This document shows, piece by piece, positions 34,006 through 53,846 of a stretch of DNA of 64,000 bases; the first letter of the stretch is position 1; each line of letters opens with the position of its first letter. Under the pieces are notes generated by a model. The model had not been told where the DNA came from and made no database searches. It was given only the letters and a program-made list of their open reading frames with translations. This DNA is from Thermoplasmata archaeon (lineage in GTDB: Archaea; Thermoplasmatota; Thermoplasmata; Thermoplasmatales; GCA-001856825): assembly GCA_023256615.1 (NCBI GenBank), contig JAGDXO010000022.1, positions 5,672 through 69,671 on the forward strand. Direction: 5' to 3'. A program made the position numbers and the translations under genes.

Positions 34006-34863
34006 GTGAGAATAGTTCCAACATATAATTCAGAAGGTCTAGCTTCTAAAATGTCATCAATTATGGAAATCCCATTGGCAAGAGTCACTAGGAGAAGATT
34101 TGCTGATGGTGAACTGTATATAAAGATTGAGGAGGAATTGGACGAATCAATAGTAGTTGGGAGTACATATCCAGATCAGGGTATAATTGATATATTGCTT
34201 ACACACAATGCATTGAAGAACGCTGGATCGAAAAGGCAAATTCTTGTGGTACCATATTTTGGATATGCAAGGCAGGACTCAATGTTCCAACCTTATGAGG
34301 CAATAAGTGCAAAGGTAATATCAGACATTCTCTATGAAAGATTTGAAAAAATTTTTGTCGTAAACATGCACTCACCTGAAGGAATGGCCTTTCTGAAGGA
34401 TAAAGGTATAGAAATAAGGGCAGAGGTCATAATTGGCGAGCAGGTTGCAAAGGATGATAACGATATAGTTGTATCCCCGGATGATGGTTTCATAGACGAA
34501 GCTAGGAACATCAGCAGGGTATCAGGTAAGGAGGCAATAGCTCTGGAAAAGAAGAGAATATCGGACACGAAAGTTCAAATAAGTATTCCAGATGATATAA
34601 AACTTGACGGTAAAAGAATTGCATTAGTGGACGATCTTATATCAACAGGAGGAACAATACTAGAAGCATCAAGAATATTGAAGCAGCATGGGGCATCCAA
34701 AATAAACGTTTACTGTATACATGGCCTGTTCATTTCAGGAACTTCAAAATATTCGGGGTTCGTAGACAGTATCTCTACGACAGACACAATAGAAGGTCCA
34801 TTCTCTAAGATATCGGTATCCAATCTTGTAGCCACGAAGCTGAGGGAATACTTATTTCTTTAA
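34006..34863 (+). CDS. prs: Ribose-phosphate pyrophosphokinase
   Basis: RRFADGELYIKI, VVPYFGYARQD, and the PRPP-binding loop ALVDDLISTGGT. Confidence 0.9.
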   Translation: MRIVPTYNSEGLASKMSSIMEIPLARVTRRRFADGELYIKIEEELDESIVVGSTYPDQGIIDILLTHNALKNAGSKRQILVVPYFGYARQDSMFQPYEAISAKVISDILYERFEKIFVVNMHSPEGMAFLKDKGIEIRAEVIIGEQVAKDDNDIVVSPDDGFIDEARNISRVSGKEAIALEKKRISDTKVQISIPDDIKLDGKRIALVDDLISTGGTILEASRILKQHGASKINVYCIHGLFISGTSKYSGFVDSISTTDTIEGPFSKISVSNLVATKLREYLFL

Positions 34864-36111: not shown

Positions 36112-36162
36112 ATTGGATCACTCACACCTATATGTTTTTTTAAGCTTATGAACATTACTGTT

Positions 36163-37380
36163 TTACGAATATCTTTTGAGCACCTCAGAAAGCCTCTTTA
36201 CTCCTTCTATGATATTCTCATCACTACTATAAGTGAAATTTAACCTCATTGACTCGTGGTTATCCTCATCAGGATAGAATGCCGAGCCAATAACGTAAGC
36301 AACTTTCATTTCCATTGCTTTGGTGAACAGTTTGTCAGTGTTTGCTCCTTTCTTTGTGACCCAGATGAACATACCACCATTTGGCCTGGTAAATTCAACA
36401 TCCTCAGGAAAATATTTTTCAAATGACTCTATCATAAGGTCTCTTTTGTGCCTATATAGAGATACGATCTTTGGAATCTGTCTTTCCATATATCCCTTCG
36501 TGACGTATCCTTCCGCAATATATTCAGAAATTGTGCTAGATGCCAAATCCAGAGCCTGCTTTGCAAGATTGAGTTTTTCAATGACATCCTTGGATGCGAT
36601 TACGTAACCAAGTCTGAAGCCAGGTGCAAGTACCTTGGAAAAAGTACCCAAGTAAACGACATTCCCTTCCTTGTCCATTGATTTCAATGATGGAATATGC
36701 TCTCCGGAAAAGCGTAAATTTCCATATGGGTCGTCCTCCAATATTATTAAATCATTCTCGCTTGCAATCTCAAGGAGTTCCTTCCTCCTCTCATAACTCA
36801 TTGTTATGCCCGTGGGATTCTGAAAATTTGGAATAACATATATGAATCTTGGATTAGGATATTTTTTCAAGGTTTCTCTCAATTTTTCCATGATCATACC
36901 ATCATGATCCATCGGAACACCGATCATTCTTATATTCGATGCCCTAAGTGCCGTTATAGTGCCGGTATATGTTGGTGCCTCACTAATCACGTATTCACCA
37001 GGGTTTGCGAAAATTTTTCCCAGCATATAGAGAGCTTCCTGCGAGCCCGTTGTCTGGATTATTTCATCAGGGCTGCAATTAATATTTTCCTTTTCTTTCA
37101 TCCTTTTTGCGAGGGCAATATTCAGCGTTTTCAAACCCTCTGTAGCCCCATACTGTAACATCCTTTTTCCGTTAATTTTCAGCTGTTCCTCGAAAATTTC
37201 CCTTACCTCATCTAGTGGGAAAGAATCGGGATTTGGCAACCCTCCACCGAAAGAAATAATATCTGGGGTATCTGTAACTCTCAAAAGCATCCTTATGGCT
37301 GAGGGTTTCATAGTTTCTGCCAAGTCTGAAAATTTCTTATTAAGGGGCTTATTCATAGCCATGGGCCTGAATTTCACCAT
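36163..37380 (-). CDS. PLP-dependent aminotransferase, class I/II (2-aminoadipate/aromatic aminotransferase-like)
   Basis: FQNPTG and the PLP-lysine region GTFSKVLAPGFRLGY. About 400 aa. Confidence 0.8.
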   Translation of the reverse strand: MVKFRPMAMNKPLNKKFSDLAETMKPSAIRMLLRVTDTPDIISFGGGLPNPDSFPLDEVREIFEEQLKINGKRMLQYGATEGLKTLNIALAKRMKEKENINCSPDEIIQTTGSQEALYMLGKIFANPGEYVISEAPTYTGTITALRASNIRMIGVPMDHDGMIMEKLRETLKKYPNPRFIYVIPNFQNPTGITMSYERRKELLEIASENDLIILEDDPYGNLRFSGEHIPSLKSMDKEGNVVYLGTFSKVLAPGFRLGYVIASKDVIEKLNLAKQALDLASSTISEYIAEGYVTKGYMERQIPKIVSLYRHKRDLMIESFEKYFPEDVEFTRPNGGMFIWVTKKGANTDKLFTKAMEMKVAYVIGSAFYPDEDNHESMRLNFTYSSDENIIEGVKRLSEVLKRYS

Positions 37381-37402
37381 TATGTAAAAAGGTTTTGTAA
37401 TG

Positions 37403-38566
37403 TCAGGGCATTTTTATGTCTCCTAGAATGTTTAAAATATCCCCTAAATTTAAGAATTTCCTGCCATTTACTATTTCAGATATCATAGTTGAAATTTTTA
37501 AAATATGCTCTTTCGATAAACCCATCATCGTCACCTCATTTAGTCCCACTCTTCCTATCCTATCGATAAGTATGTTGTTCTTTTCCAATTGCATCGAAAT
37601 TCTTGCTACCTCTGGATGGTTAATCATCATCATGCAACTTTCTGTGAACTGAGGAGGATTATAAATTGAAACTCCACTCTCTACAAGCCCTTTCAAAAGT
37701 AATTGTGTATTTTGAATGCATTTTTTCGCATATTCAAAATTTTTTAGGAATTCCAGCGATATACCCAATGCGGCTATCCTTCCTAGATGAAAATTATCAT
37801 AATATTTCCAGATTGAGTTCCTTTTGACATTTTCCTCAAGATCCTTCCTACCCAAAATCAAACCCCCCTGGGGGCCAGGGAAATTTTTATGAGTACTCCC
37901 ATATAAAACATCAATCAAAGACAAGTTCTTCTGAAATTCTCCCTGCATTATCAGTCCCAAGATGTGAGAAGCATCATAAAGTATATAAGAATCAGGGAAC
38001 ATTTCCCTCACAATCTTTAAATCATATGGGTGGAAGAATATACTTGCACCCAATATTATTGCAGAATAATCTTTTCCATATTTTCCTAATTTCTGATAAT
38101 CAATCTTCCAGTTTAACATCGGTATTTTCTCTGATTTAAGATGTAGAAGAGATGGGATATACTGTTGCATATATCCATCATATCCTCCCCACTCTTCGGG
38201 TATATAAAGAAATTTTTCGCCTTCCTTTAAAATATTGCCTAATACCTGCAATGCCGCAATGTGTCCAGATATAGGTCTCACATCAGAGAAACCAAACTCA
38301 GTTCCAGAGATCGCCAGTTTCTCAACTGTTTCAACTAGTTCCTCCGAGAACTCAGTGCCAGCATACGCATTATGAACTCTAATACCACGATAATCTGAAT
38401 CCATAACCAATGAATATCGGTGATTGAAGTCAGATGATAGGGCCTCAAGGGCTTTTCTCGGCATTATATTTTCTGACGGTTGAAGAGGAATAACATTTTT
38501 TCTAAAAGAAATCTGTTTCCCTATCAAACTCTCTATCGTATACATAAAGGAATTAGTAATATTCAC
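37403..38566 (-). CDS. glyA: Serine hydroxymethyltransferase family protein (divergent)
   Basis: SHMT signature region GSTHKNFPGPQGG (PLP lysine) and N-terminal LQPSEN. 387 aa, shorter than typical GlyA. Confidence 0.7.
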   Translation of the reverse strand: MNITNSFMYTIESLIGKQISFRKNVIPLQPSENIMPRKALEALSSDFNHRYSLVMDSDYRGIRVHNAYAGTEFSEELVETVEKLAISGTEFGFSDVRPISGHIAALQVLGNILKEGEKFLYIPEEWGGYDGYMQQYIPSLLHLKSEKIPMLNWKIDYQKLGKYGKDYSAIILGASIFFHPYDLKIVREMFPDSYILYDASHILGLIMQGEFQKNLSLIDVLYGSTHKNFPGPQGGLILGRKDLEENVKRNSIWKYYDNFHLGRIAALGISLEFLKNFEYAKKCIQNTQLLLKGLVESGVSIYNPPQFTESCMMMINHPEVARISMQLEKNNILIDRIGRVGLNEVTMMGLSKEHILKISTMISEIVNGRKFLNLGDILNILGDIKMP

Positions 38567-38568
38567 TA

Positions 38569-39375
38569 TTATTCCTTTTCTATGTGAAGATCAAAAACCA
38601 TATGATTTGTTGATGGAGAATAACTCTTGACAATCCTTGATTTTACTCCCCTTACAGATCGCAAATTTACAAGATAATTATTAATGGTTTCATCACCTCT
38701 CTTGACGAGGGCGTGCAGGTGAATTATTCCCGTATTCTTTAAAATTGACAATCCCTTGTTCAAATAAATTAAAGAATCGAAATGCCCCATAATAACTCTG
38801 TCCGCAACTCCCTCTAATGGGAAAAAACTCGAATCGCCAAAATAAGGGATGAGCGTTTCAGATTTGTTTATCATTTTATTTATTATTAAGAAATGATAAG
38901 AATCTGGATTTATCTCACAGGCATAAATCTTTTTAACCCTGGAGGAAAGCGGAATTGAATAGTATCCTATTCCCGCAAACATATCAACTACAATTTCATC
39001 ATTCTTAACTTCATCCAAAAGACGGTGCCTTTCATATTTATTTCCCTTTGAAAACATAACTTTTGAAGGGTTTAATCGGAATAAAATTCCATTCTCAATA
39101 TGGGTTACATCCGTATTTATTCCATATATTAATTTTGCCTCTGGGACTCTCATCTGACCTTTTATTTCAACAAGTTCGTAAAATGACCATAATTTGAATT
39201 TAGTAACATACGACTTAGCTATGCTGTATTTCATGTATTCTGGGAAATCTATTAAACTCATTATTATAGATTTTCCAATTATCTCAAATCTTCTGGGAAG
39301 TCTATCTTTTGGGATACCAGTTTCCTCTGATATAGCCTCAATTATGTCCCTTTTCTGCATTTCTAAACCCTCCAA
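38569..39375 (-). CDS. trm5: tRNA (guanine37-N1)-methyltransferase Trm5/Taw22-like class I SAM methyltransferase
   Basis: VVDMFAGIGYYSIPL SAM-binding motif and the Trm5-type layout. Confidence 0.75.
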   Translation of the reverse strand: MEGLEMQKRDIIEAISEETGIPKDRLPRRFEIIGKSIIMSLIDFPEYMKYSIAKSYVTKFKLWSFYELVEIKGQMRVPEAKLIYGINTDVTHIENGILFRLNPSKVMFSKGNKYERHRLLDEVKNDEIVVDMFAGIGYYSIPLSSRVKKIYACEINPDSYHFLIINKMINKSETLIPYFGDSSFFPLEGVADRVIMGHFDSLIYLNKGLSILKNTGIIHLHALVKRGDETINNYLVNLRSVRGVKSRIVKSYSPSTNHMVFDLHIEKE

Positions 39376-40498
39376 GCCAATACCAAGTTATAAGCCCGCA
39401 GAGAGGGACTATAGATGAGTATATAAATATAAACTTCAGATTGATCAACGACATCAGCAATGCCATTACAAAAGGAGCAGTGATACCCCCCAAATTACCC
39501 CACAAATTAATCCACCCTCCAACGAATGCCGAACTTTCCTTTCCAGCTATTCTTGTCGATAGTCTCCAAGAACTCAGTAGAATGGGATTTAGGAAAGATA
39601 ACATTACAGTAACAAGAATCAAAAACTCATAAGGATTGTTGAGTACAAAAGTCAATAGCATTGAAATAAATATTATTATATATGACAATTTTGAAATCCC
39701 CGTATCATTTTTCACAGCATCCAATACTATTCCTGATAATATTGCACTCAAAGCCATAAAAATCCATGGAAGAGTAAAGAAAATAAAATTGTTGGTTCTT
39801 ATTCCATATCTTTCAGAAAGAAATGCAGGGTACCAGGTAAGAAAAATGTAAAAGTAGAAATCATATAAGAAAAATGACAATCCAAAGATCCAGAAACTTT
39901 TATTCATTAGCATTTTCCATTTTCCAGGGGACTTATTTATCTTATAGTTAATATTTATACTAAGAAGGATCGAACCTACAAATATACCAGAAAATGCGAA
40001 AACAAGTATGGGTAAATATAAGTATCCAGAAAAATTCAAAAGAATGAATGCGACAATAGGTATTATGGCGGGAGATACATCCCCCAAAGCAGAAACATAG
40101 CTCGTGGCTCTTGCATATTCATGATCATCATAACTTAATCTGACTAAATACATAATGGACGGAAAAATTGGTCCCTGGGTAACCCCCATAAAGAAACTTA
40201 TTACCAAGGCAAATACGAATGATTTATCCAATGAAAGAATTCCAAGCAGTATTGACCACGAAATCATCGAAAAACCTGCAATCCTAGATGGCCCATATTT
40301 TTCAGCAAGCCTACCCCCAGGGACTTGGGTGATTGTATACCCTATATAAAAGGATGAAAAAATAAGTGAAAATAATACCTTTGAGTTAATGTCGAGATTG
40401 GCCATGAATTCTTTATAAAGTACAGATATTGCATACCTGTCTCCGAGAGCAAAGAATGCTCCTAGAGATGCTAAGGCCAGAATTGCCCTTCTGTTCAT
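39338..40498 (-). CDS. Major facilitator superfamily transporter
   Basis: 386 aa with about 12 TM segments and a GGRLAEKYGPSR loop motif between TM2 and TM3. Confidence 0.75.
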   Translation of the reverse strand: MNRRAILALASLGAFFALGDRYAISVLYKEFMANLDINSKVLFSLIFSSFYIGYTITQVPGGRLAEKYGPSRIAGFSMISWSILLGILSLDKSFVFALVISFFMGVTQGPIFPSIMYLVRLSYDDHEYARATSYVSALGDVSPAIIPIVAFILLNFSGYLYLPILVFAFSGIFVGSILLSININYKINKSPGKWKMLMNKSFWIFGLSFFLYDFYFYIFLTWYPAFLSERYGIRTNNFIFFTLPWIFMALSAILSGIVLDAVKNDTGISKLSYIIIFISMLLTFVLNNPYEFLILVTVMLSFLNPILLSSWRLSTRIAGKESSAFVGGWINLWGNLGGITAPFVMALLMSLINLKFIFIYSSIVPLCGLITWYWLGGFRNAEKGHN

Positions 40499-41565
40499 AT
40501 GATTCCAATCTCTTTCAATTTCTCAGGCAAGTATGTGTCTGTGACAAAATTTAGGCCATACTTAGCTAAAGCTTGTTGTTCAGCTTTCTTTCCAAGATTT
40601 AGCATCGTCTCAATCTCTCCTTTCCAGAATGGAGTATTGAACCTCGGATCCTCTAATTCAGCATGGAGGGCTTCAATGTCCTTATCACTCAGTTTGTCCG
40701 TGGGAAGTTCATACCTAACTATGTCAGAAGCAGTAATACCAACGAATTCAGAATTCGGTGTTGCGAGTATGTCTGAAATATGGGCTGTCTTTATTGCTCC
40801 ATAGGCTATTGATGCGAAAATCCTGAAGCTCCAAGGGTCTCCATCTGTGAATACTACTACGGGAATATGAAGTTCTTTATTGAGCCGGTTAATCAAACGT
40901 TTTGTAGATCTGGATGGTTGACCCTTAATATGAACTAGCAGGCTTCGCATTTTTTCATCAAATCTATTTTCCACCAATCTATCGAACATTCCCCCGGTTT
41001 CAATTGCCAATACAAAATCAACATCCTCTGAAACAAATTGTATTTTTTCAGGTTCTACGTTATATGGAATCGTATAGCCGGCATCACCTACATCATCTCT
41101 GCAGTTTATTTCCTTCCATTCCCCCTTCCTGTTCATTTCCTTTAATGTCAGGTTTCCTATTACAGATGCCCCGCTTTCTTCAGGTCTCAACCTCATCTCC
41201 TCTCTTAAGAGCGTAGTCATAACCTCCAGATCTTCAGTCATCATATCTGATTCATCTTGGCTCTCAAATTTTCCAAGTCCCCAACCCTCTGAAATGTAGT
41301 ACATCTCTCTCAAGGTAGATGTTTTTAAATCCTGCTCCATCTCATCTATGAAATCTATTATATAGAGCATTTTCAAGATGCTCTTGGCTGAATTTGTTTT
41401 CGATGCGTATCTCTTAACTGTATTATTACCATATTTCCATACTCCACTTAAATTATCAAAAACAATATTGTCCTTATTTCTGGATTTAAGCTCTACCTTC
41501 GGAATTTGACCTTTCTTCATTTCATTGTAAATTTCATCAACTATTGATTTTAATTTTTCATTCAT
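40495..41565 (-). CDS. top6A: DNA topoisomerase VI subunit A (Spo11 homolog)
   Basis: Toprim region LAIETGGMFDRL and FTDGDPWSFRI. Overlaps top6B by 8 nt. Confidence 0.9.
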   Translation of the reverse strand: MNEKLKSIVDEIYNEMKKGQIPKVELKSRNKDNIVFDNLSGVWKYGNNTVKRYASKTNSAKSILKMLYIIDFIDEMEQDLKTSTLREMYYISEGWGLGKFESQDESDMMTEDLEVMTTLLREEMRLRPEESGASVIGNLTLKEMNRKGEWKEINCRDDVGDAGYTIPYNVEPEKIQFVSEDVDFVLAIETGGMFDRLVENRFDEKMRSLLVHIKGQPSRSTKRLINRLNKELHIPVVVFTDGDPWSFRIFASIAYGAIKTAHISDILATPNSEFVGITASDIVRYELPTDKLSDKDIEALHAELEDPRFNTPFWKGEIETMLNLGKKAEQQALAKYGLNFVTDTYLPEKLKEIGII

Positions 41566-43327
41566 TTTTCAACACCTCTGGTAAAGAATATGCTCCAAGC
41601 AATTTTGAATCTGGCAGATTGACATAAATTTCAGAGGAATCTATGATTTCCCTGTCAAAATTCAATTCCACCTTCTCAAAAGGAGCAAGATTGTTGACTT
41701 TCTGTCTCCATTCACCTTCTCCTTTTAATAACACGGTGAATGAAAGCCTTTCCTCAGTATAATTCTCTGCAAACAGCTTTCCATCTATTTCTCTGAATGC
41801 TACTACCCCCATAACTTTGGAAATTATAGGCTTAATATCCGGCTCCTCCATTCTCAATATTGAGGAGGCTTTCTTTGAAATTGCAGGTATAATCTGCTCT
41901 ATAAGAGAAAATTTCTCCTCAACATGTGTTTTATGTTCTTCCTTTGTTTTCATTGCCCTTATTTGTCTGCCAATTTTTTTAATTACAACATCAAGAGAAT
42001 CAAGTATTTCAGGCACAGGCGCAACAGCTTCTTTAGCCTCAGAGGTATAAGGAATTTTGGTACTTGCAATATGAACCACCATTATAACTGGGCCTATAGG
42101 CAATTGGTCTTTTACAGGCTGAGACAATCCATATTGATTCCATGATATTGAAGAAATGGCCTTCGTAATTGCACAACTTCCCTGCTGATATAGTAAAGGA
42201 ACTCTATTTGTAAATCTTAAAATTTTAACAGGTTCTTCTTTCGGGATATTCCCACCATAAACGGCAATCGCCTCTATAATGAAAGGATGTCCAGAGTATA
42301 CAAAAGGTCCCTTTGAAACAGGCATGGAGAAATATGCTGGATGCATATCTTCGAAAGAATTCAATACACTCTTATAAAGGGCCTCTTCACCGATAGGGGA
42401 CAGAGACTCTTTATTTGGCTCCATAAAGTCAAAACTCTGCATGGTATTCCACAAATTTTCAAAGTCCTTCTGATGCAATTGTGATACGCTCTTCTGGCTA
42501 AGCCCGCTTTTATGAACTATTTCCTTGGAAATATTGGAAGTTATCCTAGAAAAACTATCAGAAATTATTTTTTCTATTGGCTCTTTCTCCCTCTCTCTCA
42601 AAATCGACATAAGCTCCCCCAATTCTACACCATGTGGATGAGGCTTTACTGCTTCCGGGATTTTAGGAGCTTCATTTATGCTTCTTTCAATCTCGAATTT
42701 TCTTTCAGGGAGGAAAACATGGAATGATGCATGAGGGTTTGCTATTGCTGTTTGACGAATATATTCCTCAATCGATTGCTTCCCTCCAACAATTTTTCCT
42801 TTCAATACGAGAGAAATTTTTAACCCGCTATTGACATTCCAAATAATTGGCTCAATAGAATGAATCAAGGGCTCATTTTTCTTGACATTTATTTCAAGAA
42901 TGAAGTGAAAAGCAGTAACATCATCTTTTGTTTTAGTTATAATATCCGCAGGAAGTCCGGTTGTTTTCTGGGCATACATTATCGCTGCTGTTATACCAAG
43001 ACCCTGCTGACCTCTGGTCTGCCTTACTAAATGAAATCTCGATCCATAAAGCATTTTACCAAAAGAGTCCGCCACTTCCTTTCTCGGGATGCCTGGTCCA
43101 TTATCGGTGACAGTTACCTTAAACTTATCCTGTTCAACATTCTCTATTTCCAAGGTAATATCAGGCAGTATTCCGTGATCTCCGCAGGCGTCCAATGAAT
43201 TATCTATGGCCTCCTTTACTGTCATAAAAAGAGCTTTCTGTGGAGAGTCAAATCCAAGCATCTGTTTATTTTTATCGAAAAACTCGGAAATTGATACGGC
43301 TTTTCTTTCAGGGTCAATTATCTTCAT
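41558..43327 (-). CDS. top6B: DNA topoisomerase VI subunit B (GHKL ATPase)
   Basis: Bergerat fold motifs EAIDNSLDA, DNGPGI and GQQGLG. 589 aa. Confidence 0.9.
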   Translation of the reverse strand: MKIIDPERKAVSISEFFDKNKQMLGFDSPQKALFMTVKEAIDNSLDACGDHGILPDITLEIENVEQDKFKVTVTDNGPGIPRKEVADSFGKMLYGSRFHLVRQTRGQQGLGITAAIMYAQKTTGLPADIITKTKDDVTAFHFILEINVKKNEPLIHSIEPIIWNVNSGLKISLVLKGKIVGGKQSIEEYIRQTAIANPHASFHVFLPERKFEIERSINEAPKIPEAVKPHPHGVELGELMSILREREKEPIEKIISDSFSRITSNISKEIVHKSGLSQKSVSQLHQKDFENLWNTMQSFDFMEPNKESLSPIGEEALYKSVLNSFEDMHPAYFSMPVSKGPFVYSGHPFIIEAIAVYGGNIPKEEPVKILRFTNRVPLLYQQGSCAITKAISSISWNQYGLSQPVKDQLPIGPVIMVVHIASTKIPYTSEAKEAVAPVPEILDSLDVVIKKIGRQIRAMKTKEEHKTHVEEKFSLIEQIIPAISKKASSILRMEEPDIKPIISKVMGVVAFREIDGKLFAENYTEERLSFTVLLKGEGEWRQKVNNLAPFEKVELNFDREIIDSSEIYVNLPDSKLLGAYSLPEVLKNE

Positions 43328-44097
43328 AAATCTGCAAACTTAGGATTAACTTTATATTTATTTATATTTGCTGCCATCTTCTGAAAAAAGAATCTTGCCA
43401 TCTCGGGAGAGTAAATTAATAAAGAATTCACTCCCTTAACGGCCGCCTCTATGCACGCCTCTACCGGGGCAAAAGGAATCGCATCAATACTTAATTTATC
43501 TGTAAGGGATTTAGCTATCACTCCATAGGTTCCGATGACTTTTATGTTATTCTTTTTAATGAAATCTCTCAGTTTCCTTGAATTTGCCTCTATCGAATAA
43601 TCTTTGTAATCAATGTGCATTATGTAAAGATCGCCTATTTTATAATCTATTATACCTTCCATATTCTTTACTATTATTGGGTCTCCAGGATTTCCATCTA
43701 TTTCTGCTATGCCCCTTGATTTAGATTTCATTTTCTTAGTAGCACACAGAACTCCATTTTTCATTATTAAGAAAACCCTATCATTTTTCTTAATCCTTTC
43801 TAAAGAAATTGCTTCACAGCTTGATATAAAACCCATCTCATCATAAGCTTTTTCAGCTAAATTGGTCATATTAGCAAGAAATTTCTGTAAAAAAGCAATA
43901 CCTCCAGGCGTCACATTCAAATCTTTATCAATTAGTCCATCCTTAACAAGCATTTTGATATAATTTGACGCACCTTGAGGTGTTATTTTAAGTTCAGATG
44001 AAATTTCCCTCAATTTCTTTTTATTTTTTAAAAGCTCTATTAGAATTAATGCCCTTGTAAGGGCTCCTTTCTCTCTCAGTTCAAGAAGGGAATCCAT
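43324..44097 (-). CDS. Winged-helix transcriptional regulator with uncharacterised C-terminal domain
   Basis: N-terminal HTH (LREISSELKITPQGASNYIKMLVKDGLI). Its stop overlaps the top6B start by 4 nt. Confidence 0.55.
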   Translation of the reverse strand: MDSLLELREKGALTRALILIELLKNKKKLREISSELKITPQGASNYIKMLVKDGLIDKDLNVTPGGIAFLQKFLANMTNLAEKAYDEMGFISSCEAISLERIKKNDRVFLIMKNGVLCATKKMKSKSRGIAEIDGNPGDPIIVKNMEGIIDYKIGDLYIMHIDYKDYSIEANSRKLRDFIKKNNIKVIGTYGVIAKSLTDKLSIDAIPFAPVEACIEAAVKGVNSLLIYSPEMARFFFQKMAANINKYKVNPKFADL

Positions 44098-44127
44098 ATT
44101 ACAATAAAGAGATATTAATTATTAAAT

Positions 44128-44316
44128 TTAAACCCATGTCAGTCTTTCAATTTTCCTATCCTCTTTTGTTTCTTTCTTAAATTTCTTATAATGTTCCTTG
44201 CATAAATGAACTTTAGTTTTCTGAGTACTTAAGGAAAAAACCTTTTCCGCCTCTTTTTTACTGACCGTTTTGAATTTTGGATTTTTACACCCTACAACTT
44301 CGCAGTATTCTTCCAT
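44128..44316 (-). CDS. Small basic Cys/His (zinc-ribbon-like) protein, 62 aa
   Basis: CEVVGC ... HLCKEH arrangement with a Lys-rich tail. Transcribed divergently from the T4SS-like operon. Confidence 0.45.
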   Translation of the reverse strand: MEEYCEVVGCKNPKFKTVSKKEAEKVFSLSTQKTKVHLCKEHYKKFKKETKEDRKIERLTWV

Positions 44317-44375
44317 TTTTAATGATTTAATTTGTACTTATAATCTTTTATATTATTGACAGTAAGAATAAATAT

Positions 44376-44383
44376 TTTATATA
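44376..44383 (+). promoter_or_regulatory. TATA-box-like element upstream of the pilin-like gene
   Basis: TTTATATA lies 28-35 nt upstream of the ATG at 44411, and a GGAGGGG stretch sits at 44402-44408. Whether the mRNA is short-leadered or SD-led cannot be decided from sequence. Confidence 0.35.
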
Positions 44384-44410
44384 TGTATGTAATATCAGCC
44401 AGGAGGGGCC

Positions 44411-44764
44411 ATGAAAAGGAATGCAATATTGATAGTTGCATTACTGGCTGTGCTATCGGTTCAAATCCCGATGGCACATGGCCAGCTAATGAATTCAAGT
44501 ATAACTGCATTGGCAACAACTAGTACGAATTCAACACAGATTAATGGAATTGTAGATAGGGCTTTTGGTATTGTTGCTGGAGTTGCTGGACTGGTAATCG
44601 CAATTTTGTGGGTTCCTATTGCAATAGGCTATTTCTCTAGAGACCTAGATAGAAAGGCAGATGCAAAGGAAAGAACAAAGGATGCATTAATCGGTACTAT
44701 AATTTTCGTAATGGCAATAAGTGGAGTCCTTTACGCAGTGATTCATTACATAGTTGTTGGTTGA
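44411..44764 (+). CDS. VirB2/TrbC/CedA1-like pilin candidate (signal peptide plus two-helix hairpin)
   Basis: 117 aa. Sec-type signal MKRNAILIVALLAVLSVQIPMAHG. NSS and NST sequons. Two hydrophobic helices (AFGIVAGVAGLVIAILWVPIAIGYF and ALIGTIIFVMAISGVLYAVIHYIVV) separated by the charged loop SRDLDRKADAKERTKD. Confidence 0.6.
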   Translation: MKRNAILIVALLAVLSVQIPMAHGQLMNSSITALATTSTNSTQINGIVDRAFGIVAGVAGLVIAILWVPIAIGYFSRDLDRKADAKERTKDALIGTIIFVMAISGVLYAVIHYIVVG

Positions 44765-44774
44765 TAAGATAACA

Positions 44775-45815
44775 ATGGATGCTTACTATTCGATAGGGTC
44801 AGTAGTACTATCCATAATCAGCTACCTAGTATCAGTCTTTACTGCAGGGGGGCTTTCACTACTTATTAATATCTACAATTTATACATTTCAAGGTATTTA
44901 TTGTCCCCTAACCAGGCGTATCCCAGTATAGTATCAGGTACAATTGGGAAAGGGGTTCAGTCACTTTATTACTTTTCACTCTTTCAAATATATGATCCTA
45001 TTTTTTCAATTGTGCTGATAATACTAGGAATAACAATACTTCTGAACAGTAGCTTATCCCTTGGATATAATTTTAAGCACATATGGATAAAAATATTCCT
45101 TATCCTTTTATTGTCTAACATATCATTTTTTCTTTCACAGGACTTACTATATTTAGGATATCTAATTTATTTACAACTTTGGGATTATGGCATCCCCAAT
45201 CATAATTTTTCACAGGGTATAAACATTCTATCTGGTGTACAGTTAGGGGGTACAGCAGGTTCAGAAGTCAGCTTTTTAATACTAATTATTTTTATTTTTC
45301 TAATATTATTCTTAGTGCTTTTTCTCTCAATGAGGCTGGCTATAATTTATACTTTCCCTATTTTACTGCCAATTCTATCAATACTTTATTTGATTCCACA
45401 AACCAAGGAGCTAGCAAGGAGAGGTTGGGATATATTTATAGACTCCATTTTTGCCCCCATTTTAATGGCTTTTCCTTTAATACTGGCTACTTACGTTGTA
45501 AACAACAGCGTTCTAACATTAGGGTTTCTTGCCCTAACAGATTCAATTCCAATAATGTTATCAAAATCCTCGGCTTCGAGAATATCAACTCTATTTTTAG
45601 GTCAGGCAGTCTCTACTGGTACCCAAAGATCGATTGGAATAGCAGTAGGCCTTACTGGCCCTATGAGAAATATAGTTTCTTTTTTTAAAAATGCAGAAAT
45701 GGCAAAAGGACCAAGTAATAATTCAAGAAATAATTCAACAGGTTCATCCAGACAATATTCTAGCAGGAACACAGCAAATTATTCTCAATCTCAGTTCTTC
45801 AGAGGTAAGCCCTGA
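44775..45815 (+). CDS. Polytopic membrane protein, VirB6/TrbL/CedA-like candidate
   Basis: About 7-8 predicted TM helices followed by a Ser/Asn-rich hydrophilic tail. The ATG at 44775 lies 10 nt after the pilin stop. The ORF track starts at the TTG at 44754. Confidence 0.5.
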   Translation: MDAYYSIGSVVLSIISYLVSVFTAGGLSLLINIYNLYISRYLLSPNQAYPSIVSGTIGKGVQSLYYFSLFQIYDPIFSIVLIILGITILLNSSLSLGYNFKHIWIKIFLILLLSNISFFLSQDLLYLGYLIYLQLWDYGIPNHNFSQGINILSGVQLGGTAGSEVSFLILIIFIFLILFLVLFLSMRLAIIYTFPILLPILSILYLIPQTKELARRGWDIFIDSIFAPILMAFPLILATYVVNNSVLTLGFLALTDSIPIMLSKSSASRISTLFLGQAVSTGTQRSIGIAVGLTGPMRNIVSFFKNAEMAKGPSNNSRNNSTGSSRQYSSRNTANYSQSQFFRGKP

Positions 45816-46396
45816 TGGTTCATATAATGAAATTTAGACAGGTTACTCTTAAATTAGGTCCTCTAGAAGATATCCTGCTATATAGGGCCTTAATTTTATC
45901 ATCTATAGTTATCTTTTCAGTTTTCATAATTGGATTTTATGGTTTATTAAGCATCATCATTATGATAATCTTTCTATTTCGGATAAACGATGATTTCCTA
46001 GATCAGTACCTTATCAAAATTATTAAGGGTGACAAGAGAGTTGAGCTAATAAATATCGCGGACAAGTATCAGTTATATGAGATATTCTCAGAAACGTATG
46101 GCTATTCTGAATTTCAGGATAGAGAAATAATAAGTAAATGGACAGGATTTATAAGCACCTTTAAATCAGATATCTTGATAATAAGATTTCCTTACAGGAT
46201 TCCGATAGAGAATTTTAAAGATAAAAACGATGGATACAATTCTTTATTTGATAAGAGTACTTATGTCGGGGAGGCTTATTTTATAGGCGTTTTTAAAGAA
46301 TTATCAGAAGATTTCGAAAACAAGGCTTCTGTTTCAGGTTTATTTTTTAGAAAATTGGAAGAAAATGAGGTGAAGGAACTAGATGGTTTCATCTGA
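45815..46396 (+). CDS. Membrane-hairpin protein (VirB3-like / detached VirB4 N-terminal region candidate)
   Basis: 193 aa. N-terminal double hydrophobic segment ALILSSIVIFSVFIIGFYGLLSIIIMIIFLF followed by a soluble domain. TGATG stop/start overlap upstream and a 14-nt overlap with the ATPase downstream. Confidence 0.4.
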   Translation: MVHIMKFRQVTLKLGPLEDILLYRALILSSIVIFSVFIIGFYGLLSIIIMIIFLFRINDDFLDQYLIKIIKGDKRVELINIADKYQLYEIFSETYGYSEFQDREIISKWTGFISTFKSDILIIRFPYRIPIENFKDKNDGYNSLFDKSTYVGEAYFIGVFKELSEDFENKASVSGLFFRKLEENEVKELDGFI

Positions 46397-47963
46397 AAAA
46401 AAGTCAAAAGGAACTCAGAAGGCGGATTATATGATAAAAAATTCTTCAGCGATATCGTACCTCGGCGTGAGAGATATACCATTTGAACTAAGAGACGACT
46501 TCAGAATAAGAATAGCCTATGGTGGAAGATATGTTGGGCAGATAATACATATACACCATATCCCTGAGAGAAGTAGCTGGACAATAATTACACGTGAAAT
46601 AGAGAAGATAACTCTAAATCTTGTAGGTAAGGAGAACGTGAACGATCATCAAAATGAAAAGAATAAAATTGCTCTATCAAATTTGAATTCTTTAAAGGAA
46701 GATATTGCATCTGGTAAATCATCTATATTGAGATATTCAATGAGCTATTTTATAAGGGCCGAACCTTCTAAATTGAGAATAATTAAGGAAGAACTCATTA
46801 AAAATCTAAGAAATTTAGGCGTACAATTAAATATCTCATTATTTGATGATTACAGGACCAGAAATAAAACTATAACGGGGCAGCAGAAAGGGGTGTTTTT
46901 AAATCCGGAGTCAGTTTCATACCTAATACCGGTAAATTACTCTTATACACTTCAGGACGGAGGAACCTTTTATGGAATAGATGAAATAACAAAGGCTCCC
47001 GTATTTCTGAACAGAAAAAAATTTCCATCTTCCCACGAATTGGTTTTAGGTATGACCGGATTTGGAAAATCTTTTTTCATAAAAATTACAATGATGAGGG
47101 AAAAGATTTCAAGAGGAATAAATGTAAAGATAATAGATCCCTTGGGCGAGTACGAAAATGTTAGTCTTACTATCGGGTCTAAAAAAATAGATCTTTTAAA
47201 TATGGAAATGAACATGTTTGAAAAAATTGAATATTTATCAATAAAGGAAAACGTTGATAGAGCTTTAGCATTATTCATTACCTTATTTGATTTAAACACT
47301 GAGGACAAGGGAATAATTGATACCGCTTTAACTCTGATGTTCGAAAACGATCAAAGTATCAAATTTCTACAGGAATTTATCAAAAATAATAGACCAGAAA
47401 CTTACAGCAAAATATCACCATTGTTTGAAGGTTCCTTGAGAAAATTTGTGACAGGAAAGAACCCAGATCTTAGAGGGGACGTAATAATAAACCTTGGAAA
47501 CATCCCAAAGAGATTATTGAGTTTTTACATGCTCTTATCGCTTGATTTGATAATGAGAATTAATGAAGAAAAGGAGACTAATTTGATAATTGATGAGGCA
47601 CACTATCTGATGAGTGAAGACACAGTCACGTCTCTTGAAAGATATTTGAGACACGCGAGACATAATAATATCTCTATGATTTTAATATCACAATCTGCAA
47701 ATGATTTTTCAAGATCTAAATCAACTATTTCGATAATGGAAAACTGTTCGATACATATATTATTTAGGCATCAAAATGTTAACGATGAAATTATAAATTT
47801 TTATAATTTAGATGAAAAGCTTATAGATTTTGTAAAATATGGCGCTGGCTTTAATGGAAAATATTCCCTAGCTATAATGAAGGTTCCAGGTTATGAGTCA
47901 ATTTTACGAATAGAGTCAAATAAATGGGAAATGGGATTATTGAATGAAGTACGTAAAAGTTAA
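46383..47963 (+). CDS. VirB4/TrbE/CedB-like type IV secretion ATPase
   Basis: Walker A LGMTGFGKSFF followed by VKIIDPLGEY, Walker B NLIIDEAHYLMS, then ISMILISQSANDF and CSIHILFRHQ. This order and spacing is typical of VirB4-family ATPases. Confidence 0.65.
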   Translation: MVSSEKKSKGTQKADYMIKNSSAISYLGVRDIPFELRDDFRIRIAYGGRYVGQIIHIHHIPERSSWTIITREIEKITLNLVGKENVNDHQNEKNKIALSNLNSLKEDIASGKSSILRYSMSYFIRAEPSKLRIIKEELIKNLRNLGVQLNISLFDDYRTRNKTITGQQKGVFLNPESVSYLIPVNYSYTLQDGGTFYGIDEITKAPVFLNRKKFPSSHELVLGMTGFGKSFFIKITMMREKISRGINVKIIDPLGEYENVSLTIGSKKIDLLNMEMNMFEKIEYLSIKENVDRALALFITLFDLNTEDKGIIDTALTLMFENDQSIKFLQEFIKNNRPETYSKISPLFEGSLRKFVTGKNPDLRGDVIINLGNIPKRLLSFYMLLSLDLIMRINEEKETNLIIDEAHYLMSEDTVTSLERYLRHARHNNISMILISQSANDFSRSKSTISIMENCSIHILFRHQNVNDEIINFYNLDEKLIDFVKYGAGFNGKYSLAIMKVPGYESILRIESNKWEMGLLNEVRKS

Positions 47964-50001
47964 TAACATAAGAAAGGTTGATCCTGGGAACCCAGTGCTA
48001 CTTTCATATCTAAAGCATAATTTAACATTGGATATGGTATATTTAAAGAAATATGGAAATCCACCTATGTTGTTAGTGCAAAAAAACAATGAAGAAGTCT
48101 TTAATTCTATTGGAATTGAAACTGGGGGAGAAATCGAATTTTCGGGAAAAGGAAGAAAATTATCAATTAAAGGGGACCACAGATTAATAGATTTTCCAGA
48201 TAAGAATATAGGTGACAGAATAATTGAAATATTGAATAATGAAGATCATGGTTACATCGGAATTAAAATTAAAAGGCATTATTTTGCGACCCCCAATACC
48301 CTCAATAAGAGCAAGAATTTGAACAAAAATGACGAAAGTAAGAAGAATAATCTAAGGGAAGGATGGAAACTGGAGATAGAAACAAATAATACTTCGTTAA
48401 AAAATTATATAAGCCACCTATTTTCCAATAATAAAATAAGAGTCTCATTCAGGAAATGGATCCATAGCTCTCCCACTATAGCCTGGTGGGAAATATCATA
48501 TTTTTTACCTACCAGAATATTAATGAGAAGTGAAAAAGGAATAAAAATCGGTAACACAAATAAGTCAGGTCCAATAATTATTGATCCTAATAAAGAATTT
48601 CATTCTCTTATAATTGGTTCTACAGGAAGTGGAAAAAGCTCACTTGTTTTTAACACAATAAAGAATATCTTGAAAACAAAATCCGGAAAAGTTATATTAA
48701 TAGATCCTCATGGCGATACAGCCTATAAGTTGAGTAAAACAGAATATAATTTTTATGAAATTTCAGGGGAATCAAGTAATGGAATAAATATTCTGCATAA
48801 TTACGATGATAAGAATATTAATTTCAGAATTGCGGAAGATTTCGTATCCATACTTAAATCTACAAGGGAAATGCAATTCTCTGAATCATTTATAGGGCCA
48901 AGAATAGAAGATTTAATCTCGAGAGGAATAGTAGCAATATCCAATGTTCAGGGAGCAACAATTGTAGATCTTTATAATATTTTTAAAAGCCAAGAATCAA
49001 GAAATAAAATTTTAAAATCTAATGAAAACCAAGAACTTAAAAAATTTATAGAAGAAATCGAGGAATTACCCAAAGAGGAGATTGCAGGGACTGAAAGAGC
49101 TCTTGGTAGACTAGCTCTAGATCCTTTTATTAGATCGTTAATATGTAATCCAAAAGATGGTGGTATATTGAATAAGGAAATAGATAAGAATGATTTGATC
49201 CTAATAAATTTAGAAAGAGGATTGATTGGTTATGAAGATTCTCGTATTTTATCAAATATATTAGCCGTATATATCTGGTTTATAATAACTTCTAAAAGAA
49301 ACGGTAACTATTATTTATTTCTTGAAGAAGCCCAGGATTACCAAAGCAAATTTATCTCCGATATGATATCTACTGGAAGAAAATTTGGTCTAAGAATTTT
49401 TTTTATAACTACTTCTTTTAAAGTAATTTCATCAAATCTTGAGGCATTATTCTTCTCGAATATTTCAAATTACATAGTTATGAAGCTTTCAGAACCTGAT
49501 AAAGTAGATTTTGAGAAATTTATGGGATTTCCAATAAATTTTTCTGACGAACAATTAAAATTTACACTTATTTCCTCCAACACGCAAATGAAAGGATACA
49601 CTGATAAGGTTCTATTTGAACCGCATAAATCCAAATTCAAAGAATCAAAATATAGTTTCTTAACTGATACAGAAAATGATAACGATTTATCCATAAAAAT
49701 ATCTGATATATTATCTACTTTCGAATCGAGGGAAAAAACGTTTTTTATTTACGAAACATTCGCAAATTATCTCAGCAATTACGAAAAATCAAAGGTAATA
49801 TCAAATCTAAAGAAAATTTTAAAGGAAAATCAGAGTGTTCAATACATTGGAAGATTTAATATAGATTTTCAGAAAATAAGCGGGAGGTATGAAGTTTTTT
49901 TGTTTACTGGAACATCCAGTGCGGTTATAAAACAGTCCAAAATACCACATTTATTTGAAATATATAGTGATTATATAGAATCGTTAATAGTTACGAAATG
50001 A
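47944..50001 (+). CDS. HerA/FtsK-superfamily ATPase, VirD4/TraG-like coupling-protein candidate (no N-terminal TM)
   Basis: Walker A IIGSTGSGKSSL followed by VILIDPHGD, Walker B YYLFLEEAQDY, then GRKFGLRIFFITTS. 685 aa. Confidence 0.55.
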   Translation: MKYVKVNNIRKVDPGNPVLLSYLKHNLTLDMVYLKKYGNPPMLLVQKNNEEVFNSIGIETGGEIEFSGKGRKLSIKGDHRLIDFPDKNIGDRIIEILNNEDHGYIGIKIKRHYFATPNTLNKSKNLNKNDESKKNNLREGWKLEIETNNTSLKNYISHLFSNNKIRVSFRKWIHSSPTIAWWEISYFLPTRILMRSEKGIKIGNTNKSGPIIIDPNKEFHSLIIGSTGSGKSSLVFNTIKNILKTKSGKVILIDPHGDTAYKLSKTEYNFYEISGESSNGINILHNYDDKNINFRIAEDFVSILKSTREMQFSESFIGPRIEDLISRGIVAISNVQGATIVDLYNIFKSQESRNKILKSNENQELKKFIEEIEELPKEEIAGTERALGRLALDPFIRSLICNPKDGGILNKEIDKNDLILINLERGLIGYEDSRILSNILAVYIWFIITSKRNGNYYLFLEEAQDYQSKFISDMISTGRKFGLRIFFITTSFKVISSNLEALFFSNISNYIVMKLSEPDKVDFEKFMGFPINFSDEQLKFTLISSNTQMKGYTDKVLFEPHKSKFKESKYSFLTDTENDNDLSIKISDILSTFESREKTFFIYETFANYLSNYEKSKVISNLKKILKENQSVQYIGRFNIDFQKISGRYEVFLFTGTSSAVIKQSKIPHLFEIYSDYIESLIVTK

Positions 50002-50029
50002 ATTTATCAGAGTAATAATTGGTCTTATA

Positions 50030-50650
50030 ATGAAGGGAGATATTAATGAGGCCTACCTGTCTTCTCTACTAAGATTAGAGGTAAAGAATTATGACTTAAC
50101 TCCAATCCCTTCAACGTTTTACAAGGACGTAAGAAATTACTTAGAGGATCTGAAGGGTAAAATAGATATAGAAACCACCAAGAAGAATTCCAGACTTGCA
50201 GGTAAATACATCATGGATTTGGAAAATTCCGAAAAAAATTTTAGAAGAATTGTTGAAAGGAGAATATCGAAAATTCTAATGGCAAAGTCATTGGAAGAAA
50301 AGGAACGTGTTGAAGGTCATTTAACTCCTGAGGAACAGATTTTTTATGAATCATTAAGTGAAACCATTAAAAATTTCCTAGAGGAATTATTACACGGCGG
50401 GATAATTACAAATCCGGAGATTCCAACAATTAAAAATGAATCTAAAAAAGAAACAGTTACAGATGAACCTTCAACAAAGGAGGACGAAGGGGAAGAATAC
50501 GCTTTAGTATACATAAAGCAGGACATTCAAAATATTTCTGTTATGGGGGAAAAAATAAACCTCAGGAAGGAGGACATTCTGACACTTCCAGTTAAATATG
50601 CTGATATTATTGATAAGCAAGGACTTGGAAAAAAGCTGAAAATCATCTGA
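50030..50650 (+). CDS. GINS complex subunit, Gins51-like
   Basis: N-terminal A-domain pattern (LLRLEVKNYDLTPIPSTFYKDVRNYLEDL, RRISKIL, LTPEEQIFYESL) and a C-terminal B-domain-like segment (YALVYIKQDIQNISVMGEKINLRKEDILTLPVKYADIIDKQGLGK). Confidence 0.6.
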   Translation: MKGDINEAYLSSLLRLEVKNYDLTPIPSTFYKDVRNYLEDLKGKIDIETTKKNSRLAGKYIMDLENSEKNFRRIVERRISKILMAKSLEEKERVEGHLTPEEQIFYESLSETIKNFLEELLHGGIITNPEIPTIKNESKKETVTDEPSTKEDEGEEYALVYIKQDIQNISVMGEKINLRKEDILTLPVKYADIIDKQGLGKKLKII

Positions 50651-50656
50651 TAAGAA

Positions 50657-50668
50657 ATCTATATATAC
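50657..50668 (+). promoter_or_regulatory. Candidate 23S rRNA promoter TATA box
   Basis: ATCTATATATAC lies immediately after the GINS stop and about 125 nt upstream of the mature 23S 5' end. Confidence 0.4.
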
Positions 50669-50790
50669 AGCGTATTGCTATAGTTCTTTTGCTCATTGTG
50701 CACCTGGTGATCTTGTATCATCAGGGAAGGACTGAAATCCTTTTTAGGATTAATGAAGGTCAGCATAGGGTTAAGATATAGAGAATGGAG

Positions 50791-53709
<2,919 letters not shown>

Positions 53710-53846
53710 TCCATTTTACTTAACCCTTGCTGATTGTGAGCATTTTTTATTTCCGAAATAATGTGAATAAATTTTTATCTACCCTAAATAAATTTTTTAA
53801 AAATGGTATAGGAAATCAAATTTTAAAGAAATTATTGGTAAAAGAA

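Follow-up and report, generated by a model that had tools for sequence, protein, structure and literature searches.

A predicted VirB2-type pilin gene at the head of a chromosomally fixed type IV secretion-like operon in acidophilic Thermoplasmata

In the 64,000-nucleotide stretch of Thermoplasmata archaeon contig JAGDXO010000022.1 analysed here (the window), the open reading frame (ORF) at 44411-44764 (+) encodes, by ORF call and translation, a 117-amino-acid (aa) protein that is very probably a VirB2-type pilin of an operon resembling type IV secretion systems (T4SSs). The protein sequence quoted in an earlier reading, made from the DNA letters without database searches (the sequence-only reading), is an exact match to this translation. 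That reading had proposed a conjugative pilin of the VirB2/TrbC/TraA type, and the proposal is supported by a score above the gathering threshold of the Pfam T4SS_pilin profile (PF18895), by a VirB4-like partner in the operon and by VirD4-like and relaxase-like neighbours of the pilin in mobile relatives. The best composite explanation, to which we give a probability of about 0.62, is a VirB2-type pilin of a vertically inherited T4SS-like apparatus that would exchange DNA in the manner of the archaeal Ced and Ted systems.

Sequence, family and conservation of the pilin

The pilin gene, the parts of its product and the elements upstream of it are as follows.

44411..44764, + strand: pilin gene, 117-aa precursor of a probable VirB2-type (Pfam T4SS_pilin) pilin (ORF, PF18895)
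44411..44482, + strand: predicted Sec/signal peptidase I leader, residues 1-24, MKRNAILIVALLAVLSVQIPMAHG (n, h and c regions, A-x-G site)
44483..44554, + strand: Thr/Ser/Asn-rich tail, residues 25-48, predicted to be exposed, with the sequons N40-S-T (nt 44528-44536) and N28-S-S
44555..44635, + strand: hydrophobic helix 1, residues 49-75 (hydropathy, AlphaFold, invariant columns)
44636..44683, + strand: charged loop SRDLDRKADAKERTKD, residues 76-91 (charge count, conservation)
44684..44761, + strand: helix 2, residues 92-117 (hydropathy, AlphaFold; the C-terminal Gly is invariant)
44367..44384, + strand: A/T-rich TATA-like putative promoter box AATAAATATTTTATATAT, 5' of the pilin gene (position and conservation)
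44402..44408, + strand: Shine-Dalgarno-like GGAGGGG, 2 nt ahead of the pilin ATG

Residues 38-102 of the pilin align with positions 3-64 of the 71 positions of PF18895 at 28.2 bits (E 2e-6), the gathering score of this profile being 26.6 bits, and 18 of 22 family members that were deliberately chosen to be diverse match the profile individually (best E 3.4e-8). The same region weakly matches the NCBIfam 'pilin-like conjugal transfer protein' of a Mycoplasma integrative and conjugative element (ICE) (NF045849, E 0.0056), and no match of the window pilin to Pfam TrbC/VirB2 (PF04956) was found. T4SS_pilin is one of the two Pfam profiles used for VirB2-like pilins in Patescibacteria (PMC12102498). 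In work on Gram-positive pilins, a VirB2-like protein is defined operationally by a length of 50-150 aa, the topology (signal peptide)-out-transmembrane (TM)-in-TM-out and a position beside a VirB6-like gene (10.64898/2025.12.18.695078). By hydropathy and sequence rules the 117-aa pilin has this size and topology; as to the further criterion that such a pilin be encoded with a VirB4 ATPase, a VirB4-like ATPase is present in the operon and the linkage is kept in distant lineages.

The leader, topology and charge of the pilin were judged by hydropathy and sequence rules. The leader consists of an n-region MKRN (charge +2), an h-region of 15 hydrophobic residues and a c-region P-M-A-H-G, in which Ala at -3 and Gly at -1 obey the signal peptidase I rule and place the predicted cut before Q25, between A-H-G and Q. 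Cleavage at this site, which is the cut before QL that the sequence-only reading had put at the end of a Sec-type signal peptide, is predicted because the -3/-1 rule fits and because the leader is the least conserved part of the protein. The mature pilin would have 93 residues after the cut at G24, and its predicted semi-tryptic N-terminal peptide is QLMNSSITALATTSTNSTQINGIVDR. A class III (PibD/FlaK) motif was sought in residues 1-25 and none was found. We also considered a PibD/FlaK-processed type IV pilin, which had been dismissed from the sequence as well, and ruled it out on the lack of a class III leader, the classical n/h/c layout, the presence of two further hydrophobic segments and the lack of a match of the window pilin to the type IV pilin families of Pfam.

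The 24-residue tail behind the leader has no charged residue. Hydropathy peaks at residues 54-72 and 93-111, together with six K/R and five D/E in the 16-residue loop between them, agree with the earlier description of two hydrophobic helices joined by a charged loop. The charged loop and the uncharged tail make up a positive-inside pattern, from which an out-in-out topology is predicted. The AlphaFold2 model built with a 28-sequence alignment (mean predicted local distance difference test score, pLDDT, 75.6) comprises a helical leader and a disordered tail, followed by helices 40-80 and 85-116 folded into a hairpin.

A first homolog search with the pilin returned 37 clusters, all from metagenome-assembled genomes (MAGs) of Thermoplasmata/Thermoplasmatales, with 57-99% identity. 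A genome scan, for which the close-family alignment and not the diverse alignment was used, found relatives in 18 species-level genomes (I-plasma relatives) at 57-82% identity. In the close-family alignment residues 49-117 are nearly invariant while the leader and the tail are free to vary; helix 1 shows a GxxxGxxG pattern as well as the invariant residues W67 and P69, and across its 28 sequences 11 of the 16 loop positions are invariant and 13 reach at least 90%. The loop residues S76, D78, K82 and K86 are conserved at 90% or more in the diverse family alignment. Median identities were measured against the same 18 genomes for operon and flanking proteins. The two-helix core (residues 49-117) reached 85%, equal to the 85% of Top6A, followed by Top6B (65%), the VirB4-like ATPase (54%), the polytopic protein (53%) and the HerA-like ATPase (41%) described below, and residues 1-48 could be aligned in just 3 of the 18 genomes. 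This contrast between a free leader and a highly constrained core would be expected if the precursor is cleaved and its mature portion is tightly packed within a polymer. The pilin ORF is a real gene under strong purifying selection, and a chance ORF is excluded. Upstream, the core TTTTATAT of the TATA-like box is kept in the aligned regions of 11 lineages, and the box is the presumptive promoter; the consensus GGGAGGGG of the ribosome-binding site is kept in 11 of 11 aligned lineages.

With a broader profile the family grew to at least 628 clusters, of which the few named ones are Thermoplasmata or Euryarchaeota MAGs; named relatives of the pilin all carry Thermoplasmata, Thermoplasmatota or generic euryarchaeal MAG labels. 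The window holds a single copy of the pilin module. Elsewhere in the family, eight members of 260-600 aa (P0046, P0056, P0060 and P0063-P0067) begin with a signal peptide and a large extracellular domain and end, after a Gly/Trp/Ser-rich linker, in the same two-helix pilin module, and these could be minor or tip pilins displaying an adhesin. One of them, P0067 (597 aa), shares a 45-kb contig with the short pilin P0048.

Both sequons pointed out in the sequence-only reading are present, NSS at N28 and NST at N40, but only the N40 position is conserved throughout the family, the NSS at N28 not being conserved in the close-family alignment. In the 144 family members compared, an N-x-S/T sequon occurs in 127 of the 131 unique 18-residue segments that precede helix 1, against 49.6 expected from shuffling the same segments. 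The sequon Asn nearly always lies 24 or 27-28 residues N-terminal to the invariant Trp, and within the two-helix module a sequon was found just once across the 144 proteins. Since the sequon is conserved and enriched at a fixed position and both AglB/AglD homologs and a gene cluster for N-glycosylation are known from the I-plasma lineage (PMC3750248), N-glycosylation of the pilin at N40 is a well-motivated prediction. The conserved sequon on an otherwise variable tail is a newly described detail.

The operon, its chromosomal position and its mobile relatives

The head position that the sequence-only reading had assigned to the pilin gene holds: it is the first of five genes that overlap by 11, 1, 14 and 20 nt and are translationally coupled. 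The four genes behind it are listed below.

44754..45815, + strand: gene 2, polytopic membrane protein of 353 aa from TTG, or 346 aa from ATG at 44775; candidate VirB6/TrbL/CedA/TedA-like channel and pilus assembly platform
45815..46396, + strand: gene 3, 193-aa protein with an N-terminal membrane anchor (hydrophobic segment at about residues 36-54)
46383..47963, + strand: gene 4, VirB4-like ATPase of 526 aa (Pfam AAA_10 and DUF87, NCBIfam, PDB)
47944..50001, + strand: gene 5, second P-loop ATPase of 685 aa, soluble, HerA/FtsK superfamily (Pfam, PADLOC, PDB)

The VirB4-like ATPase carries the Walker A motif GMTGFGKS and the Walker B motif LIIDEA. Its NCBIfam matches are conju_CD1110 (5e-25), TraC (6.5e-16), VirB4_CagE (6e-10) and CedB (3e-7), all far under the equivalog cut-offs; among solved structures its best match is the C-terminal domain of VirB4 (4AG5, 6e-5), and it is 22-30% identical to plasmid VirB4s of haloarchaea, Sulfolobus and Firmicutes. 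Because the ATPase covers only positions 199-700 of the 752-position CD1110 profile and thus lacks the N-terminal part, we suspect that VirB4 is split here, and the 193-aa protein may supply VirB3 and the N-terminal part of VirB4. This two-gene arrangement is kept in all relatives.

The polytopic protein of gene 2 has at least five hydrophobic segments, and a gene of this type always comes next after the pilin gene, in close as well as in distant chromosomal loci. The window protein gave no Pfam match; its homologs form 229 clusters, and among the distant members listed roughly one in four has a weak precomputed match to PF19590 (TrbL_3), a family of the TrbL/VirB6 type. In a Foldseek search with a moderate AlphaFold model built from database homologs (pLDDT 65.5), R388 TrwI/VirB6 chains appeared at ranks 3, 13, 14 and 37 with non-significant E values of 1.4-5. 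The gene 2 product is likely to be VirB6-like.

The 685-aa ATPase matches Pfam DUF87 (4.9e-10) and, weakly, FtsK and TrwB, as well as HerA-type models of PADLOC and, in the PDB, HerA 8WIV (0.007), and it is found in all I-plasma-clade loci. We considered it as a coupling protein and rejected this, its similarity to the genuine VirD4 of a mobile relative (L029, see below) being confined to the P-loop; it is better described as HerA-like. A role of the operon in anti-phage defence was likewise discarded: the mad8/HerA matches of PADLOC come from the generic HerA/P-loop domain of the two ATPases, and the three membrane proteins had no matches.

The operon has identical neighbours in all the close-family members inspected, namely, on one side, genes for PRPP synthase, an aminotransferase, SHMT, Trm5, an MFS protein, Top6A, Top6B, a winged helix-turn-helix (HTH) protein and a 62-aa protein, and on the other GINS23 followed by 23S rRNA. 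By tblastn, the operon and flanking proteins were recovered at the loci of 18 of 18 species-level genomes, and the operon proteins diverge in step with their neighbours. By these sequence comparisons the operon is chromosomal and vertically inherited in uncultured acidophilic Thermoplasmata (I-plasma relatives). An apparently pseudogenised VirB4 in one relative (L003, 11973-13298; GCA_049966375.1), split into 62 aa and 345 aa, was set aside as an assembly artefact due to a run of N.

The locus might alternatively be an integrated self-transmissible conjugative element with an ordinary mating pilin. Such a reading would accommodate a VirB4-like ATPase that is closest to the VirB4s of conjugative elements, of the monoderm/archaeal type, a GC content of 31.6% in the operon (44411-50001) against 36.0% in the whole window, and the occurrence of pilin relatives in integrase-bearing elements. 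The low GC could reflect membrane proteins rich in Ile, Leu, Phe and Asn or an ancient foreign origin. An ICE or plasmid would be recognised by an integrase or replication gene, a relaxase, a coupling protein and variable presence. However, the Pfam and NCBIfam scans of the window operon and its flanks gave no match to an integrase, relaxase, coupling protein or replication gene, the nearest tRNA genes lie 17 kb and 8 kb from the locus, and no member of the pilin family was found in PLSDB plasmids or IMG/VR viral contigs. With the same housekeeping neighbours in every inspected I-plasma-clade genome and divergence in step with them, a self-transmissible element is very improbable here.

Four distant chromosomal loci (L025-L028) share the order pilin, polytopic protein of 375-431 aa, two small proteins and VirB4-like ATPase of 561-605 aa. 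The surrounding housekeeping genes are unrelated between these loci, and the gene order is kept. A different context was found for two further relatives, L029 (1-20378) and L030 (1-15309), which have a phage-type integrase and many small ORFs and, in L029, a MazE antitoxin. Here the pilin gene is followed by genes for a protein of 283-314 aa, a 208-aa protein with weak matches to MobA/VirD2 relaxase domains and a VirD4/TrwB coupling protein (E 1e-36). Because these pilins sit with a coupling protein and a relaxase-like gene, the pilin family is tied to DNA-transfer machinery, and the window version is fixed in the chromosome. If the hosts of L029 and L030 are archaea, the relaxase-like gene would be notable, since recognisable relaxases are said to be missing from archaeal conjugative plasmids.

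Giant surface proteins of 1415-2183 aa are encoded directly 5' of the pilin gene in L025 (3725-9004), L027 (3584-9004), L029 (3256-9807) and L030 (5615-9862). Those of L025 and L027 carry PKD repeats and their genes overlap the pilin start codon, while that of L030 has faint Ig-like matches. They are absent from the clade of the window, and their position suggests a co-expressed adhesin in these other lineages.

Assembly, function and comparison with known systems

By analogy with the solved F, T, CedA1 and TedC pili (PMC9905601; 10.64898/2025.12.18.695078), we propose the following route of assembly. The Sec pathway would insert the precursor into the membrane and signal peptidase I would cleave it after A-H-G24. 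From hydropathy and charge, the 93-residue mature pilin would then span the membrane twice, with its two termini outside and the basic/acidic loop on the cytoplasmic side. AglB would N-glycosylate the exposed tail at N40. Pilins would be extracted from the membrane by the VirB4-like ATPase together with the VirB6/TrbL-like polytopic protein and, probably along with membrane lipid, may polymerise into a thin, hollow filament, a pilus whose lumen is lined by the conserved charged loop and whose surface is covered by the variable glycosylated tail.

As in Ced and Ted, the apparatus is most likely a domesticated conjugation machine that would move chromosomal DNA between cells. Domestication is indicated by the single housekeeping position in 18 species, the failure to detect an integrase, relaxase or coupling protein and the presence of the HerA-like ATPase; DNA exchange is favoured because, with those mobility genes lacking, a HerA-like motor is kept and the mobile cousins are conjugative. 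Taken by itself, DNA exchange as the function has, in our estimate, slightly less than an even chance.

The sequence-only reading had likened the pilin to those of Ced and Ted. The architecture is indeed shared, whereas no sequence similarity to any solved pilin was detected. TedC of the Ted system of Thermoproteales (PMC9905601) is likewise a small two-helix pilin with a leader apparently cut by signal peptidase I, and its gene adjoins genes for a VirB6-like protein and a VirB4-like ATPase in a chromosomal system that has no relaxase and often a HerA-like ATPase. The Ted-type features (a predicted signal peptidase I leader, chromosomal genes for a likely VirB6-like protein and a VirB4-like ATPase, a HerA-like gene) all occur in the window, as a functional resemblance only. 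Unlike Ted, which belongs to the phylum Thermoproteota, the window system is from Thermoplasmatota, its VirB4 function is apparently split over genes for 193 aa and 526 aa, its pilin has a conserved N-glycosylation sequon before helix 1, and its locus contains no ParA/VirC1-like or Rad50 gene; profile searches against PDB chains detected no similarity to TedC, which was never compared directly.

Ced of Sulfolobales and Aeropyrum (PMC9905601) is a domesticated T4SS of the chromosome, as the window system most likely is, and has a VirB2-like hairpin subunit, the polytopic CedA and, in CedB, an ATPase of the VirB4/HerA type, all three with a likely counterpart here. It differs in that CedA1 is reported to be secreted without processing (PMC9905601), whereas the window pilin has a predicted cleavable leader, and in having CedA2, which has no counterpart in the window system. 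Against the CedB equivalog model NF041017 (DNA_import_CedB), the two window ATPases score 29.3 and 29.1 bits, compared with a cut-off of 700, and the PDB-chain profile searches detected no similarity to CedA1, a protein that was never compared directly and whose chain was not confirmed to be among those searched. The window pilin works, on our reading, like TedC and CedA1 and belongs to neither family.

The closest link by profile is to the PF18895 pilins of Patescibacteria and the Mycoplasma ICE family NF045849, the window pilin being a direct member of the former profile and a weak match to the latter. These systems likewise occur in monoderm or wall-less hosts, have a VirB4 of the monoderm/archaeal type and often lack a relaxase (PMC12102498). 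Patescibacteria, however, have variable pilin arrays averaging 25% identity, in contrast to the single copy, the extremely conserved core, the archaeal host and the conserved sequon found here. With the bacterial VirB2/TrbC/TraA pilins the window pilin shares two TM helices with a short charged loop, a leader, here predicted to be removed, a gene at the head of a transfer operon and partners of the VirB4 and, probably, the VirB6 type; it differs from them in leaving PF04956 unmatched and in belonging to a system that needs no outer-membrane components. It is also probably glycosylated, whereas no glycosylation was seen or described for the solved bacterial conjugative pili (PMC9905601).

In Cuniculiplasma, the genes CSP5_1185-1189 have been listed as 'type IV secretion components' comprising a small membrane protein, a multipass protein, VirB4 and a Thermoplasmatales-specific membrane protein (PMC5155288). 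Compared by description alone, they are probably orthologous to the window system. That account gives arCOG labels only, calling the small protein just a 'membrane protein', and contains no pilin assignment, topology or comparison with Ced or Ted. A VirB4 has also been noted in E-plasma (PMC10354927). Among the open-access and bioRxiv literature, no Thermoplasmata system is mentioned in the Ced/Ted paper (PMC9905601), in PMC12448462 or in the 2025 review of T4SS nomenclature (PMC12857230).

Several results weigh against the explanation that we favour, and each has to be set beside the reading it would support. For the pilin itself, the PF18895 cut-off is cleared by 1.6 bits only; Foldseek with the pilin model found no significant match in the PDB, its hits being generic hairpins (best E 2.4), a two-helix hairpin being too simple for such a search; and profile searches of PDB chain sequences with the close and the diverse alignments, at E values up to 10, returned no pilin chain. 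The chance matches of these profiles were potassium channels, coronavirus spike and an ABC permease. If the protein were a small two-pass membrane protein of some unrelated kind, its resemblance to T4SS pilins would be a compositional accident, of a kind that hydrophobic hairpins do produce (potassium channels and ABC permeases being such spurious matches), and the narrow Pfam margin and the uninformative fold searches would be as expected. An accident of this kind is barely credible, since 18 of the 22 divergent members match PF18895 independently, and the pilin gene always lies with that of a VirB4-like ATPase in four chromosomal neighbourhoods that are unrelated to one another, and in two mobile elements with that of a VirD4 coupling protein.

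For the apparatus, the adverse points are that the TrbL_3 matches of distant gene 2 homologs were not reproduced in a local Pfam scan, that Foldseek with the gene 2 model gave no significant PDB match (best E 0.23), that the 193-aa protein had no family match in the Pfam and NCBIfam scans, and that the HerA-like ATPase is absent from the distant chromosomal loci and is thus not a core part. A 2025 study of pili in cultured Thermoplasmatales, moreover, mentions no T4SS-type pilus (PMC12448462). This silence is one ground for supposing that the VirB2-like subunit builds, on top of the VirB6-like platform, only a short conduit or stalk close to the membrane and no extended pilus, which would be enough for touching wall-less cells with little envelope to span. 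The conserved sequon on a variable exposed tail would be more natural for a surface filament, however, the first position in the operon and the strong ribosome-binding site fit a highly expressed filament subunit, and long pili are formed by CedA1 and TedC, whose archaeal hosts have comparable envelopes (PMC9905601), so that a conduit without a pilus seems quite improbable.

The giant adhesin-like neighbours in other lineages also fit a role in contact or adhesion. The apparatus and the pilus might accordingly be real but serve contact, adhesion or the exchange of proteins or metabolites, for instance with the ARMAN/Micrarchaeota nanoarchaea attached to Thermoplasmatales in acid mine drainage (AMD). 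Such a role would be compatible with a chromosomal operon without matches to a relaxase or coupling protein, with the PKD/Ig-repeat proteins directly 5' of the pilin gene in L025 and L027, with the fusion of a large extracellular domain to the pilin module in some family members, with the pili-like connections and needle-like penetration imaged between Thermoplasmatales and ARMAN cells (PMC4110969), and with the relaxase-less T4SSs of Patescibacteria, whose VirB2 arrays are thought to be co-opted for other functions (PMC12102498). Yet in mobile elements this pilin family accompanies a coupling protein and a relaxase-like gene, which makes DNA transfer the ancestral job; Ced and Ted have no relaxase either, and Ced is a DNA importer (PMC9905601); the operon encodes a HerA-like DNA motor; and the imaged connections were never tied to a gene. 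We consider a purely non-DNA role unlikely, though it deserves attention, and keep to a domesticated machine for DNA exchange.

Archaeal conjugative-type pili have been structurally documented so far only for Ced (Sulfolobales, Aeropyrum) and Ted (Thermoproteales), and recognisable pilins were long said to be missing from archaeal conjugative plasmids (PMC9905601). The present analysis names a concrete pilin gene for a chromosomally fixed T4SS-like operon of acidophilic Thermoplasmata that formerly carried arCOG labels only (PMC5155288), and domesticated conjugation-type pili would extend to a second archaeal phylum. New are the conserved sequon, the conservation of the core at the level of Top6A, the apparently split VirB4 and the existence of mobile and chromosomal forms of one family. 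The sequon on a variable tail and the Top6A-like core conservation make specific predictions for structural work, and the mobile and domesticated versions of one pilin family offer a natural comparison for the taming of conjugation machines. Populations of AMD archaea (Ferroplasma) have mosaic genomes and high recombination, for which a review names no mechanism (PMC2704941); the operon provides a concrete, testable candidate for DNA exchange in Thermoplasmata.

A more far-reaching reading, tentative and on balance doubtful, is that Thermoplasmata have a conjugation-derived machine that was domesticated independently, the third such case in archaea after those of Ced and Ted and the first outside Thermoproteota, with a lipid-containing glycosylated pilus as a route of recombination. 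Were this true, the pilus would be the physical route that has long been sought for the homologous recombination so frequent in AMD Thermoplasmatales, it might explain some of the thin filaments that join cells to each other and to ARMAN nanoarchaea, and the lineage would retain the mobile ancestor of one system alongside its tamed descendant.

Neighbouring genes and other observations on the locus

Divergent from the pilin gene, the ORF at 44128-44316 (-) encodes a basic protein of 62 aa that shows the pattern Cys-x4-Cys ... Cys-x2-His. It occupies the same position in all I-plasma-clade loci with a median identity of 61% and up to 89%, has no family match and may be a small zinc-binding regulator of the operon. 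The winged-helix protein at 43324-44097 (-), with a C-terminal DUF7839 below the Pfam cut-off, lies between Top6B and the 62-aa gene in every relative, and in the distant loci L026 and L028 an HTH-containing protein is encoded just 5' of the pilin gene.

On the other side, 28 nt after the last gene of the operon, a GINS23-like replication protein is encoded at 50030-50650 (+) (NCBIfam 4.8e-14, below the cut-off). Its C-terminus is extended by a long acidic stretch, and its gene, which keeps this place in all relatives, may share a transcript with the operon. A complete archaeal 23S rRNA gene follows at 50789-53712 (+), at which related MAG contigs end, and no 16S rRNA gene was found within the 64-kb window. 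Unlinked rRNA genes are typical of Thermoplasmata, and the lone 23S gene fits this pattern.

The nearest named genomes are 'I-plasma' Thermoplasmatales MAGs, with a pilin identity of 81-82%. Window positions 34411-51500 are 99.97% identical, over 17,090 bases, to contig Ga0197954_1000042 of the Joint Genome Institute (JGI) metagenome 3300019780.

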